29,166 bases of DNA. It comes from Ardenticatenia bacterium (GTDB taxonomy: Bacteria; Chloroflexota; Anaerolineae; Aggregatilineales; Aggregatilineaceae). The stretch covers positions 1-29,166 of the forward strand of contig JALSSH010000604.1 in the NCBI GenBank assembly GCA_026984385.1. The letters are read 5' to 3'. The notes beneath the pieces were generated by a model, which worked only from the letters and a program-made list of their open reading frames with translations, made no database searches and was not told the DNA's origin. Numbering within the stretch: the first letter of the stretch is position 1; every line of letters starts with the position of its first letter. Of this stretch, positions 197 to 4,312 are shown in pieces. The position numbers and the translations under genes are program-made.

Positions 197-1030
197 ATGC
201 CCGAACCGATCCCCACCGCGATCCTGTTGCCGGACGGCTCGCTTGCCCCTACGCCCTACGCGGCACACTCGCTGGCGGAAGTGGCCGAACACGAGCCGCA
301 AGGGGTTTACACCGTCGCGCGCACCTTTCAGCACGACCGCGCGCTGTTGTTGGACGCGCACCTAGACCGCATGGAAAAGTCCGCGCGGCTGGTCGGCATT
401 CCCTTGAAGCTGAACCGCCCCCAACTGCGCGCCGCACTACGCACGTTGATCCACCGCGCAGGCTATCCGGAATCCCGCTTCCGCATCACCGTCCCGCGTG
501 ACGTGCCCGAGCAGGTCTATTTGGCACTCGAACCGTTGCGCCCCGTGCCCGAACACGTTATGCAGGAAGGCGCGCACGTGATCACCGTGCCGCTGGTGCG
601 CCCCAACCCCGTCGCCAAAACGACCGATTGGGTCAAAAAGCGTCGCCCTGCCTACGAACAACTGCCGTCGGACGTTTACGAGGGTATCTTGCTTGACGCA
701 AAGGGCTATGTGCGCGAGGGCTTGTCCAGCAATTTTTACGGCGTGTTGGAAGGGACGCTCCACACGGCGGGAGAAGGCGTGTTGGAAGGCATTACACGCA
801 TGGCCGTTTTGGAGCTTGCACCGCAGGTGTTGCCGCTGGAAATGACGCCCGTTCACAAAAGTGACCTGCCGCGCTTGAGCGAGGCGATGCTCACCAGCAG
901 CAGTCGGGGCGTTGTGCCGATCACGCGCATTGACGGGCAGCCGGTGGGGGATGGGCGTGTGGGGCCGATCACGCGGCGGTTGCAGCAGCTTTACGACGCC
1001 TGGACCGAAGCGCACGCCGAGCCGATCTAG
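197..1030 (+). CDS. Class IV PLP-dependent aminotransferase (IlvE/D-amino-acid aminotransferase/PabC family)
   Basis: Motifs HLDRM, PVAKTT (candidate PLP lysine), EGLSSNFY, LEGITR, SSSRGVVPITRIDG; AGGA upstream of ATG. Confidence 0.88.
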   Translation: MPEPIPTAILLPDGSLAPTPYAAHSLAEVAEHEPQGVYTVARTFQHDRALLLDAHLDRMEKSARLVGIPLKLNRPQLRAALRTLIHRAGYPESRFRITVPRDVPEQVYLALEPLRPVPEHVMQEGAHVITVPLVRPNPVAKTTDWVKKRRPAYEQLPSDVYEGILLDAKGYVREGLSSNFYGVLEGTLHTAGEGVLEGITRMAVLELAPQVLPLEMTPVHKSDLPRLSEAMLTSSSRGVVPITRIDGQPVGDGRVGPITRRLQQLYDAWTEAHAEPI

Positions 1031-2025
1031 CCGTCGGAAGCGTCTTCGGAGATGTCGCGGCGCAAGAGACGTTCGGCCTCCCAGATAGGCAGCTTTTCGT
1101 AGCGACGGCGTAATATCTCCAAGCGCGGATAGCCGTCGGCGGCCTCGGCGGCCCATTCCTGGGCAAAAGCGCCCGTGCGGATCGTGTCCAGCACGTTTTC
1201 CATTTGCTGGCGCAACTTCACGTCCTTAAAGCGTTCCACGCGCGAAAGCGTGCCATATTGGGCGATGCGCGGGTGCAACACCAAACTGGGCAGCACGCCG
1301 ATCTCGGCCCATTTGGTGATCACATAGCCCAGCTCGCCGGAAAGATATTGGCTGAGCGCGATAGCCTCCGGCGAAAAGCCCTCGCGGGTCAATACCTCCA
1401 GCGCGGTTTGTAGCGCGCTGTGCACGGCGGCAAGCAACGCTTGCTGAGCAAACAGATCGAGTTCGGCCTCCTGGCGAAAGGTCAGCTCGACCGCGCCTTG
1501 ATGCAGCGCGCCCAACGCTTTGGCGACGGCCAACACCCGCGCCCACGCCTGGCCGGAAGCGTCTTGTTCCACCGCCACAAAGCTCGGGAAGCCGCCCCCC
1601 TCGATGTACCCTTCGCGCACGCGCTGCCCGACCGCTTGCGGCGCGATCAGCCCCACGTCCACAAAAGGTGGCGGCTCGACAAAGCCGAACGCCACATTGT
1701 AGCCCGAAGCAAAGATCAGCAGATCGCCCGGGCGCATCCCGGGGGCGACTTGCTCCACATACAGCGGCGCGGCGATCTCGTCCGGCAACATCAGCAAAAC
1801 CACGTCTGCGCGCGCCGCTGCCTCTTCGATGCTGAGCACCTCGAAGCCATCGCTATAGGCGCGGTCGGCGTAAGGGTCGGGGCGGTTGCCGACCAGCACA
1901 GGGAACGCGCTATCCCGTAAGTTCAGCGCCACTGAGCGCCCCATGTTGCCGTAGCCGATGACAGCCAGCGTGCTGTTGATCAACAAACCCAGATCGGCGT
2001 CGGCGTCGTGATAGATAACGGCCAT
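1027..2025 (-). CDS. Ketol-acid reductoisomerase (IlvC/KARI class I)-like protein, divergent paralogue
   Basis: N-terminus MAVIYHDADADL, Rossmann motif AVIGYGNMG, LLMLPDE, TFRQEAELDLF; start moved to ATG 2025 because GGGAG lies upstream; several canonical catalytic residues are altered. Confidence 0.85.
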   Translation of the reverse strand: MAVIYHDADADLGLLINSTLAVIGYGNMGRSVALNLRDSAFPVLVGNRPDPYADRAYSDGFEVLSIEEAAARADVVLLMLPDEIAAPLYVEQVAPGMRPGDLLIFASGYNVAFGFVEPPPFVDVGLIAPQAVGQRVREGYIEGGGFPSFVAVEQDASGQAWARVLAVAKALGALHQGAVELTFRQEAELDLFAQQALLAAVHSALQTALEVLTREGFSPEAIALSQYLSGELGYVITKWAEIGVLPSLVLHPRIAQYGTLSRVERFKDVKLRQQMENVLDTIRTGAFAQEWAAEAADGYPRLEILRRRYEKLPIWEAERLLRRDISEDASDG

Positions 2026-2076
2026 CGTTTGCTCCCAACGTGAACGCGGCAAGTGCGCGTGATGTTTTGCACGGTC

Positions 2077-2085
2077 ATTCTATCA
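2077..2085 (-). promoter_or_regulatory. Extended -10 promoter candidate for the IlvC-like gene
   Basis: TGaTAGAAT on the minus strand about 50 nt upstream of the start; no good -35. Confidence 0.45.
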
Positions 2086-2132
2086 CGCGCGGCTTTTCTG
2101 CCCAGCTCTATAGCGGCTCGGCGCGGAAAAGT

Positions 2133-2161
2133 TTGCGCCGCCGTGCAGGGTAAGCTACATT
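2133..2161 (+). promoter_or_regulatory. Sigma70-type promoter candidate for the metallophosphoesterase
   Basis: TTGCGC (2133-2138), 17-nt spacer, TACATT (2156-2161). Confidence 0.4.
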
Positions 2162-2203
2162 GTGCGCATTCAATCACCCGAACCCGATTGCCTCACAGGG
2201 GTA

Positions 2204-3004
2204 ATGTCTATGCTGCCTCATCTGACGTTTGTTCACATCACGGACTCGCATATGACTTCGGACGGCGCACCTTTACATGGCGTGGCTTCTGCGCCCAATT
2301 TGCGCCGTTTAGTGCGCTTGATCAATGATTTTCCCACACCGCCGGACTTCGTGCTGCACACCGGCGACGTTTCCCATGACCGAGGCGCGCCCTCCTATGA
2401 GCAAGCTCAGCCCATTCTCGCCGAGCTGCGCACGCCGATCTACTACGTGGCGGGCAACCACGACGCCCCGGCGCTGTTGCGCAAGTTCTTAGGCGCGCCG
2501 CCTGCCGCAAACGGCGACCCGACCGCTCCGCTGGACTATGTGTTTGAGGTGAAGGGGGAGCGCTTTTTGGTGTTGGACGGTTGCTGGGAGCACGTGCGTG
2601 ACCCGCTCGGCTGGCTCAGCGAGGAACAACTCGCGCGGGTGCGCGACGAAGCCGCTCCACAAGGGCCACCGTTGACGATTGTTTTGCACTATCCGCCGTT
2701 CAAGATGGGGTCGCCCTGGCTGGACGACAATATGATCCTAACCAACGGCGCGGCCCTGCACGAAGCGCTTTTGCCCGCGCGGGGACGTTTGCGCGCGGTG
2801 CTTTGCGGCCATTTGCACCGCAGCAGCCAAATCGTGCGCGATGGGATTACGTACATCTCCGCGCCCAGCGTGGCCCCTGCTTACACCTGGCAGCCCTGGG
2901 ACGCCGAGCCGCGTCCCGATCTGGAAGTGCCGCCCGCTTATAACCTGGTGCACTACTTCACGGATCGCGTGGTTGTGCAACAGTACCATTTTGCGCGTGT
3001 GTAA
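2204..3004 (+). CDS. Calcineurin-like metallophosphoesterase, CpdA/Icc-like (possible 3',5'-cyclic nucleotide phosphodiesterase)
   Basis: Ordered motifs HITDSH, HTGDVS, GNHD, LHYPP, CGHLH; start set at ATG 2204 after AGGGG (ATG 2210 also possible). Confidence 0.85.
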   Translation: MSMLPHLTFVHITDSHMTSDGAPLHGVASAPNLRRLVRLINDFPTPPDFVLHTGDVSHDRGAPSYEQAQPILAELRTPIYYVAGNHDAPALLRKFLGAPPAANGDPTAPLDYVFEVKGERFLVLDGCWEHVRDPLGWLSEEQLARVRDEAAPQGPPLTIVLHYPPFKMGSPWLDDNMILTNGAALHEALLPARGRLRAVLCGHLHRSSQIVRDGITYISAPSVAPAYTWQPWDAEPRPDLEVPPAYNLVHYFTDRVVVQQYHFARV

Positions 3005-3012
3005 GGGAAAAG

Positions 3013-3040
3013 AAAAAGCCCGCGCGCTGCGCAGGCTCGG
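3013..3040 (-). terminator. Rho-independent terminator downstream of tRNA-Glu
   Basis: Minus strand AGCC-T-GCGC-agc-GCGC-G-GGCT stem (one G-U pair) followed by TTTTCTTTTCCC. Confidence 0.7.
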
Positions 3041-3043
3041 CTG

Positions 3044-3116
3044 TGCCCCTATGGGGATTCGAACCCCAGTCTTCACCTTGAAAGGGTGGCATCCTAGTCC
3101 TCTAGACGATAGGGGC
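3044..3116 (-). tRNA. tRNA-Glu (TTC), CCA not encoded
   Basis: Acceptor stem GCCCCTA/TAGGGGC, anticodon loop CT-TTC-AA, T-loop GTTCGAATC, 73 nt to discriminator A. Confidence 0.96.
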
Positions 3117-3129
3117 GTGACATGCGCTC

Positions 3130-3158
3130 ATTCTACCAGTGCATCAGAGAGGCGTCAA
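3130..3158 (-). promoter_or_regulatory. Sigma70-type promoter of tRNA-Glu
   Basis: TTGACG (3158-3153), 17-nt spacer, TAGAAT (3135-3130), 13 nt upstream of the tRNA 5' end. Confidence 0.85.
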
Positions 3159-3239
3159 GGAAATTTCGGGGCTTTGTTCTGTGCGATGAACATCGTCCGC
3201 AGGGAAGCGCTTTTCGGGCTAGGAGTGCGTGCGCAGAGC

Positions 3240-3324
3240 GGGCGCGCCGCCTAGCCGCGCGCAGCGCGGCTGACGCGCGGCATCCGCCGCGCGTAGTGCG
3301 CCGAAGGCGCACGGCGGCGCGCCC
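3240..3324. repeat. Nested palindromic element forming a four-way junction (12-bp closing stem plus three hairpins)
   Basis: Stems 3240-3251/3313-3324, 3253-3260/3264-3271, 3273-3280/3287-3294 and 3296-3302/3306-3312 are all perfect Watson-Crick; the structure is seen directly, the function is unknown. Confidence 0.85.
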
Positions 3325-3352
3325 CTGCGTCCCCAACCGCACGAGCTACGTT

Positions 3353-4312
3353 CTACGCACTCGTCAGTTGGCCTAGCTCCATTTCCAGCAAGCGCTCGGC
3401 GTCCACGCCCACGCAAATATTGACCGGCGGACGTCCTTCCCAGGGGAGCGCTCCCTCGCGCGCCACGTTCCCGACCACCCCGGGCCACGTTTTGCCGCGC
3501 CCAAGTCCGGCCAGCTCCACGCGGATCGGCCAGCGTTCCACCTGGAAAAGCGATGGGTCGAGCACATACGCAATGGCCGAGGAGTCGTGCACGTAAATTC
3601 CTTGCAAATGGGGGTAATGTCGCTCGAAGAATGCGCGATAGAAGCGCACGATGCGCGCGATATGTTGCGCCAGCGGATTTTGCGCCTGCTCATAGCGCGC
3701 CAGGTGTTCGGGCGTCATATTGACCTTGTGTGTCACGTCTAGCCCCACCATCGTCACCTGCCAATCTGCCGCAAAAACGGCTTCCGCCGCTTCCGGATCG
3801 TTCCAGATGTTGGCTTCGGCGGTGGGCGTAGCGTTGCCCGCTTCGTAGGCGTTGCCGCCCATCAACACCACTTCGCGCACGTTTTGGGCGATGCGCGGCT
3901 CCAGGTGCAGCGCCAGCGCGATATTGGTCAGTGGCCCGATGGGCACAAGCGTAATTTCGCCCGGGGCGGCCATGACCTGCTCGATGATGAACTCAGCGGC
4001 GCTTTGCGCGATGGCGTGCGTGCTCGGCGGCGGCAACTCGACGTTGCCCTGGCCGTCCGCGCCGTGTACGAAATCCGCCGGCCCGTTGAAGCGCCCCGCG
4101 ATGGGTGCGTGTGCGCCCTGGGCCACCGGAATATCGCTGCGCCCCGCGATCTCTAACAGCCGCAGCGCGTTGGTCGTCGCCAGCTCCACCGCCACGTTGC
4201 CGAAAATGGTTGTCAGCCCGAGCACGTCAAGTTCCGGCGAGCGCAAGGCGAAAAAGATCGCCATCGTGTCGTCTACGCCCGGGTCGGTATCAATGATGAT
4301 TTTGCGCGCCAT
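3353..4312 (-). CDS. Nucleoside hydrolase (IUNH/Rih family)
   Basis: N-terminal DTDPGVDD (DxDxxxDD), HGADG, IGPLTN, MGG, AEANIWNDPEA, GLDVT, HD motif. Confidence 0.95.
   Translation of the reverse strand: MARKIIIDTDPGVDDTMAIFFALRSPELDVLGLTTIFGNVAVELATTNALRLLEIAGRSDIPVAQGAHAPIAGRFNGPADFVHGADGQGNVELPPPSTHAIAQSAAEFIIEQVMAAPGEITLVPIGPLTNIALALHLEPRIAQNVREVVLMGGNAYEAGNATPTAEANIWNDPEAAEAVFAADWQVTMVGLDVTHKVNMTPEHLARYEQAQNPLAQHIARIVRFYRAFFERHYPHLQGIYVHDSSAIAYVLDPSLFQVERWPIRVELAGLGRGKTWPGVVGNVAREGALPWEGRPPVNICVGVDAERLLEMELGQLTSA

Follow-up and report, generated by a model that had tools for sequence, protein, structure and literature searches.

The closest described systems to the repeat reported here are the REP/BIME/REPIN elements of Enterobacteria, Pseudomonas and Stenotrophomonas. 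Both are GC-rich, extragenic palindromes that exceed 100 copies per genome, form lineage-specific families, prefer gene 3' ends without target-site duplication and lie in mosaics with other short modules in either orientation, and in both the active form is presumably a folded single strand. Each REP consists of one imperfect stem-loop, 20-40 nt long and tagged at one end by GTAG or CGTC (PMC3733652), and REPs flank a RAYT gene. REP/BIME elements are known from the literature to be bound by gyrase, IHF and Pol I (PMC2817692). Bacterial MITEs (Correia/NEMIS, ERIC, RUP, Nezha) and the Rickettsia palindromic elements are also comparable, being small, high-copy sequences with terminal inverted repeats that can fold as RNA or DNA and of which some lie in frame in protein genes. 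A third point of comparison is provided by the short inverted repeats shaped by template switching according to the Ripley model (PMC8604942, PMC5941160), whose arms are perfect, whose multinucleotide "compensated" changes occur without intermediates and whose spacers flip between reverse-complement forms such as GAA and TTC. Finally, the terminal repeats of parvoviruses and AAV (T/Y hairpins) consist of an outer palindrome around small inner ones, with the interior in two inverted configurations.

The window, i.e. the whole 29,166-nt stretch of DNA analyzed here, belongs to a metagenome-assembled genome (MAG) of an uncultured hydrothermal-vent Anaerolineae bacterium (G000; 3.0 Mb, 626 contigs, 61.9% GC, 90% complete). 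Its positions 3240-3324 most likely represent one copy of a non-autonomous palindromic repeat of REP/BIME-like character, for which folded DNA rather than a strand-specific RNA is the form that matters, and this folded form would be made of hairpins in single-stranded DNA or of a cruciform. In this 85-nt core, a 12-bp closing stem encloses three perfect hairpins joined by linkers of 1, 1, 1 and 0 nt, and the stem extends outward, across a 3-nt bulge, through GCGCAG and CTGCGT (Table 1).

Table 1. Positions in the window of the repeat, its flanking modules and its neighbors, with the conservation of each part of the core among 100 parsed copies
Feature	Position	Strand	Description and basis	Copies with the consensus
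Canonical U-tract terminator of tRNA-Glu	3038-3016	-	Terminator scan	
tRNA-Glu(UUC)	3043-3116	-	ARAGORN, Rfam	
tRNA-Glu promoter	3130-3158	-	TTGACG-17-TAGAAT; scan; ~80 nt beyond the repeat	
Left flanking module, "Z" type	3222-3239		Includes GAGTGCGT (3223-3230) and GCGCAG (3231-3236); pairs in folds	
Closing stem, 5' arm GGGCGCGCCGCC	3240-3251		Sequence and folds; holds the palindromic octamer GGCGCGCC	97/100 (consensus GGCGCGCCGCC); invariant in alignment A1
Arm 1	3253-3260 / 3264-3271		8 bp, loop GCA (3261-3263)	84/100
Arm 2	3273-3281 / 3286-3294		9 bp, loop ATCC (3282-3285); flip and flop forms across copies	90/100
Arm 3, GTGCGCC-GAA-GGCGCAC	3296-3302 / 3306-3312		7 bp, loop GAA	98/100 (consensus GTGCGC[CT]..[AG]GCGCAC)
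Closing stem, 3' arm GGCGGCGCGCCC	3313-3324			99/100; invariant in alignment A1
Right flanking module, "W" type (..GCGTCCCCAACCGCACG..)	3325-3362		Includes CTGCGT (3325-3330) and ACGCACTC (3355-3362); common to several copies	
Inosine-uridine nucleoside hydrolase gene, last of the nucleoside operon	3353-4312	-	Pfam IU_nuc_hydro, E 8e-97	

The closing stem, the three hairpins, the linkers and the outward extension are all present as given in the initial annotation of this DNA, whose span of 3231-3330 corresponds to the core plus the outer extension. Arm 2, which it had drawn as 8 bp with a CATCCG loop, is indeed a perfect hairpin, its actual size being 9 bp with a smaller loop. The outer 8-bp inverted repeat that it proposed as possible wider ends, of which the right arm runs into the hydrolase stop codon (3353-3355), lies in flanking modules that are common to about a dozen copies and are imperfect inverted repeats, but does not mark the boundary of the family as such. 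Folding on both strands goes far beyond shuffled sequences, in line with what had been expected of a genuine structure. As DNA, the core reaches -53.2 (+) and -53.3 (-) kcal/mol (z -7.40 and -7.31), none of 200 shuffles being as stable, with an identical four-way junction on the two strands; as RNA, the region 3215-3370 gives z values of -5.35 (+) and -4.47 (-). The absence of any recognizable RNA family also held, since the Rfam search at gathering score returned no family for the element (best sub-threshold match, 21.7 bits against a cutoff of 79), and at E values up to 10 it returned only noise. The element had rightly been distinguished from a tRNA: ARAGORN and Rfam find one, tRNA-Glu, only at 3043-3116, and a tRNA-derived element was rejected on the same grounds. 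An integron attC site was likewise rejected, as the stems are perfect and there is neither a GTTRRRY motif nor a cassette array.

The core is one member of a large family. BLASTN with the core finds 109 places in G000, so that the element is not a single unconserved copy, a possibility that the initial annotation had left standing, and nhmmer finds 112 places. A covariance model built from 54 copies (alignment A1) matches at least 102 places in G000 and at least 69 in the MAG of the only other species in the genus (G001). A further subfamily, missed by nhmmer and detected by its closing stem, has wholly different arms 1 and 2 within the same architecture and with the same arm 3. Altogether about 112-120 copies are present in G000. 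Logan word depth, taken from four public vent metagenomes, rises from 7-19 in the flanks to 630-2,900 within the repeat, and this excess indicates that the true copy number is probably above our count. The arm-3 pattern has matches in G001 and in metagenomes. One genome from another genus (G043) holds 3-4 divergent copies with the same layout, in which the closing stem is partly compensated and still contains GGCGCGCC. Searches of viral contigs, of 39 other genomes in the family and of 150 taken from across the class, many of these genomes being incomplete MAGs, did not detect the repeat. This is a high-copy and genus-restricted family. Of the 1,252 contig ends in G000, 35 are no more than 250 nt from a core, and the repeat thus helps explain part of the fragmentation of the MAGs of this genus. 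We also observed that JGI contigs of the same species from sister samples (L165, L178, L268, L276, and L282) bridge several G000 contigs across repeats, and these contigs could serve to scaffold the MAG.

The survey of 100 parsed copies, whose unit length is 82-90 nt, allowed us to examine which parts of the cloverleaf are conserved. The closing stem is nearly constant, and the sequence of arm 3 is kept in nearly all copies of both species. The sequences of arms 1 and 2 vary across the family, and where they differ both sides are altered together so that the hairpin stays perfect, arm 2 including compensated GC-to-AT changes in A1. Each of the 98 distinct cores folds into three hairpins on both strands, and their stems add up to 3,205 GC and 321 AT pairs (more than 3,500 Watson-Crick pairs) with 2 mismatches. 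In A1, 99.7% of the cells are paired and eight pairs carry 73 double-sided versus 1 single-sided change; these values were reached by 0 of 500 shuffles and collapse in slid registers. The G001 copies repeat the pairing pattern of G000. G-T pairs number 69 on the plus strand versus 3 on the minus strand and are confined to the ends of stems, at a small number of inherited junction positions; the single T..G pair just inside the closing stem accounts for 50 of the 69. This asymmetry was considered as a hint of an RNA strand and rejected, since these few inherited positions account for it. Because wobble intermediates are nearly absent and both strands fold equally, the pairing points to a constraint or a mechanism acting on DNA palindromes and is not what selection on RNA produces.

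A second feature of the family is the inversion of its loops and interior. Loop 2 occurs in three reverse-complement pairs (TCT 17 and AGA 11; ATTC 16 and GAAT 7; ATCC 15 and GGAT 14), and G001 shows flip/flop pairs at loop 2 as G000 does. Loop 1 (TGC 39 and GCA 4; TCC 19 and GGA 3) and loop 3 (GAAA 11 and TTTC 9; GAA 27 and TTC 0) are strongly skewed to one orientation, and pure neutral flipping does not account for this skew. The counts for loop 1 also show that for this loop the GNA triloop on the plus strand, to which attention had been drawn initially, is a minority form and not a family trait. The whole 61-nt interior is found in both orientations (16 versus 9) between the same pair of flanking modules, with the breakpoints of the inversion inside the closing stem. 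At one orthologous locus of the two species (C502 versus L089), loop 1 is inverted (GGA/TCC) and one pair of arm 1 is doubly substituted. Between samples of the same species, 2 of 9 loci with flanks at least 99.4% identical differ by an exact loop inversion (TCT/AGA and GAA/TTC), in short-read contigs that run through the repeat and in which chimeric assembly paths are possible.

These features closely match those of the Ripley-model repeats introduced above. Template switching between short inverted repeats has been described to homogenize arms and to invert spacers, including GAA/TTC flips (PMC8604942). By analogy, replication template switching between the short inverted repeats of the cloverleaf would homogenize its arms and invert its spacers, and we infer that it would account for the perfection of the stems as well as for the "compensated" changes. 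The described cases are isolated, whereas the present family consists of four nested or adjacent inverted repeats dispersed in more than 100 copies. It offers some 100 replicates, in two species, of nested inverted repeats that stay perfect through double changes without intermediates and whose spacers are flipped, and it is a clean illustration that covariation can come from a DNA mutational mechanism and not from RNA selection. An orphan cloverleaf that proves to be a dispersed repeat is also a warning against annotating such elements as RNA genes.

The placement of the copies is informative with respect to this distinction. Based on gene contexts from our own simple codon-usage scoring of ORFs, the 56 intergenic copies with two neighbors lie between convergent genes in 22 cases, tandem genes in 30 and divergent genes in 4, against a genomic background of 17% convergent, 67% tandem and 16% divergent contexts. 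The copies therefore prefer gene 3' ends, and they do so without orientation bias, the two orientations of the core being equally frequent (15:15) in tandem contexts. The enrichment between convergent genes and the depletion between divergent ones would be expected if the host had selected a structured RNA module for the 3' ends of its operons, i.e. a terminator without U-tract, a block to 3'-exonucleases or an insulator, repeated since many operons need one. This explanation also draws on the extreme stability of the fold as RNA, on the mostly G-first loop 3 (GAA, GAAA, GTAA) on one strand and, at the window locus, on the hydrolase gene having no canonical terminator before the tRNA-Glu promoter though the tRNA has one. 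However, the even orientation in tandem contexts and the equal folding of both strands speak against it, as do the free inversion of interior and loops, the presence of some copies in frame inside genes (see below) and the virtual absence of G-U pairs in the 74 changed cells, unlike what is seen in selected RNA. A strand-specific RNA function is the main rival of the folded-DNA reading and, on balance, we regard it as unlikely. The structured-RNA option of the initial annotation is accordingly disfavored, while its other option, a non-autonomous single-stranded DNA or cruciform repeat, is the one that the copy number, the strict Watson-Crick stems on both strands, the flip/flop forms, an empty site and the lack of orientation bias point to.

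The flanks of the copies are mosaic. Most copies are bordered by modules from a small set of short sequences, which are imperfect inverted repeats of one another; the Z/W pair of the window copy is common to about a dozen copies. Some copies form part of ~330-nt composites that contain additional hairpins. Other palindromic repeats of G000, i.e. simple hairpins of 47-48 nt and one-arm versions, end in GGCGCGCCGC as the cloverleaf does (C4:2443, C10:3043, C14:2877, C399:6919, C503:3709; C119:1258, C542:1305; C64 ~4392; C418:681). No target-site duplication was found at the borders of the copies, where direct repeats follow the length distribution of shuffled flank pairs.

Gain or loss of a copy is suggested by one empty orthologous site. 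The intergenic region of G000 contig C31 is ~103 nt shorter than its G001 counterpart carrying copy L115 and lacks the repeat, which supplies the empty site that had been sought; it is a single case of presence/absence, with borders blurred by divergence. An empty X-Y junction was looked for in G000 and only one-arm variants of it were found. In G001, L115 (C324, ~1560-1760) lies between the stop codon of one gene and the signal-peptide region of the next. Here the frame is open through the repeat and an ATG is present in the loop of arm 3, so that the repeat may alter the start of the next gene.

Further copies lie within coding sequences. The copy at C20:2301-2389 of G000 (L157) is inside a conserved gene for a DUF2298/PMT_2-type membrane protein, in frame in both species, the G001 counterpart being at ~3355-3562 of L095 with a length that differs by exactly 3 nt. 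It encodes an Arg- and Ala-rich loop of ~30 residues, whereas the loop at this position of the protein is also Arg-rich but shorter in four other genera. The copies at C398 and C232 look like the in-frame C20 copy. On the evidence of these reading frames, which show it, some copies can be translated. In each species, the orthologous copy in this gene carries the dominant arms 1 and 2 of its own species, which argues for concerted evolution among copies.

Several of these properties recall an ordinary MITE, namely a deletion derivative of a DDE insertion sequence moved by cut-and-paste through its 12-bp terminal inverted repeats, in which the internal hairpins would be incidental. The element is 85 nt long and high-copy with perfect 12-bp inverted repeats, these ends being present in 97-99 of the 100 copies, presence/absence polymorphism is seen at the C31/L115 site, other palindromic repeats share the GGCGCGCCGC ends, and in-frame gene insertions are known for MITEs. 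We nevertheless hold this origin to be quite improbable. Shuffled flank pairs show direct repeats as often as the real borders do, matching ends were not seen to enclose a transposase or a longer element, and there is no DDE_Tnp_1 match in G000 (only a fragment in G001). Moreover, the three-hairpin layout is kept despite wholly replaced arms, and also in another genus, which terminal repeats alone would not require; unlike in MITEs, the interior is maintained by compensated changes rather than decaying. The cloverleaf also departs from REPs. Instead of a single imperfect stem-loop, the cloverleaf is a perfect four-way junction of 82-90 nt. GTAG is only internal in it, before arm 3, in 52 of the 100 copies (GTGG takes its place in 39), and the ends read GGGCGCGCC. 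The cloverleaf belongs broadly with the REP, BIME and MITE repeats, but it does not show the hallmarks of canonical REPs (a single tagged stem-loop, a RAYT) or of DDE MITEs (a target-site duplication, a parent insertion sequence), so that we file it in neither. In a literature search that was not exhaustive, neither this family nor any bacterial repeat of cloverleaf shape was found described. The family adds a four-way junction to the known REP-like shapes, in a phylum (Chloroflexota) with few accounts of such repeats.

We then turn to the enzymes that might mobilize the repeat. A RAYT or TnpA(Y1) gene, which had been suggested as a partner, was not found in functional form in either MAG: G001 has no Y1_Tnp match, and the lone Y1_Tnp-like protein of G000 (PF01797) was rejected as a RAYT, as this acidic protein of 615 aa matches only through a degenerate C-terminal domain, where other residues have taken the place of the HUH motif and the tyrosine. 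This acidic, Pro-rich protein is encoded at 391-2238 (minus strand) of L031 (G000:C191), with a further match at 3-245 of L032 (C19); its HUH motif reads DYVVM, its catalytic Tyr is missing, and G043 encodes a homologue. Neither G000 nor G001 contains TnpB (PF07282). A gene framed by two copies in a REPtron-like manner was also considered and rejected, as neighboring copies enclose ordinary housekeeping genes, whose products are a binding protein, a beta-lactamase-like protein, an M23 peptidase, a GT2, a thiolase, and a mutase. In the fragmented G000, genes were not found between paired orphan ends either. Binning often loses insertion sequences. Since both MAGs are fragmented and 81-90% complete, the mobilizer gene may simply be unassembled.

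The family points to a mobilizing or homogenizing activity. The invariant closing stem bearing GGCGCGCC and arm 3 may be the recognition parts for a putative trans-acting enzyme or for gene conversion, and such recognition would spread and homogenize the copies. A more far-reaching proposal, which we advance tentatively and consider doubtful, is that the family represents a new class of structure-specific mobile or self-homogenizing DNA, in which GGCGCGCC in the closing stem and arm 3 would be read by a candidate junction- or hairpin-specific enzyme other than RAYT, the interior would flip like a viral flip/flop terminal repeat, and copies could be written in frame into proteins. The likeness to the parvovirus and AAV repeats is in shape only: these are the ends of linear single-stranded viral genomes undergoing rolling-hairpin replication by a Rep nickase, whereas the cloverleaf copies are internal to the chromosome, each of their loops flips on its own and they have no known Rep gene.

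The invariance of the palindromic octamer GGCGCGCC in each closing arm could alternatively mean that the repeat is a chromosomal protein-binding or DNA-topology site, recognized by a cruciform- or junction-binding protein, gyrase, a nucleoid protein or a GGCGCGCC-specific enzyme and kept for the host, its spread being secondary. The over-use of GGCGCGCC in G000 (866 occurrences), several other GC-only palindromes being nearly absent, would fit such a site, and so would the binding of gyrase, IHF and Pol I that is known for REP/BIME elements (PMC2817692). On the other side, no candidate protein was found, only about a quarter of the GGCGCGCC sites are in repeats, and copies inside coding sequences argue against a positional function. 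The restriction of the family to one genus also implies that it does not answer a general host need. We judge a host binding site to be very improbable and retain the reading as a REP/BIME-like folded DNA. As a separate observation, the octamer counts in G000 are strongly uneven: GCGGCCGC and CCGGCCGG do not occur, GGGGCCCC occurs once, CCCGCGGG 3 times and CGGGCCCG 4 times, as compared with the count given above for GGCGCGCC and 1,341 for GCGCGCGC. This uneven use of GC-only palindromic octamers looks like restriction avoidance of CGGCCG, GGGCCC and CCGCGG.

At the window locus, the repeat sits 29 nt downstream of the stop codon of the nucleoside hydrolase gene, and the order on the minus strand is hydrolase gene, repeat, tRNA-Glu promoter, tRNA-Glu, and terminator. 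The terminator scan found no canonical terminator of the hydrolase gene's own before the tRNA-Glu promoter. The organism does use standard intrinsic terminators, as the U-tract terminator of tRNA-Glu indicates. The window copy is present and identical in four samples from 2018-2025, in assembler contigs that break inside the repeat, and flipping and movement are thus not fast. This copy would be a passenger downstream of the nucleoside operon. If transcribed, it would form a very stable 3' structure that could incidentally stabilize the mRNA or insulate the nucleoside operon from the tRNA-Glu promoter, and an effect of this kind as a 3' RNA structure would be plausible. The synteny between G000 and G001 at this locus stops exactly at the repeat: the tRNA-Glu promoter is conserved in G001 and the sequence beyond it is unrelated there. 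This promoter, in the 3016-3158 region of the minus strand, is near-consensus with an extended TG.
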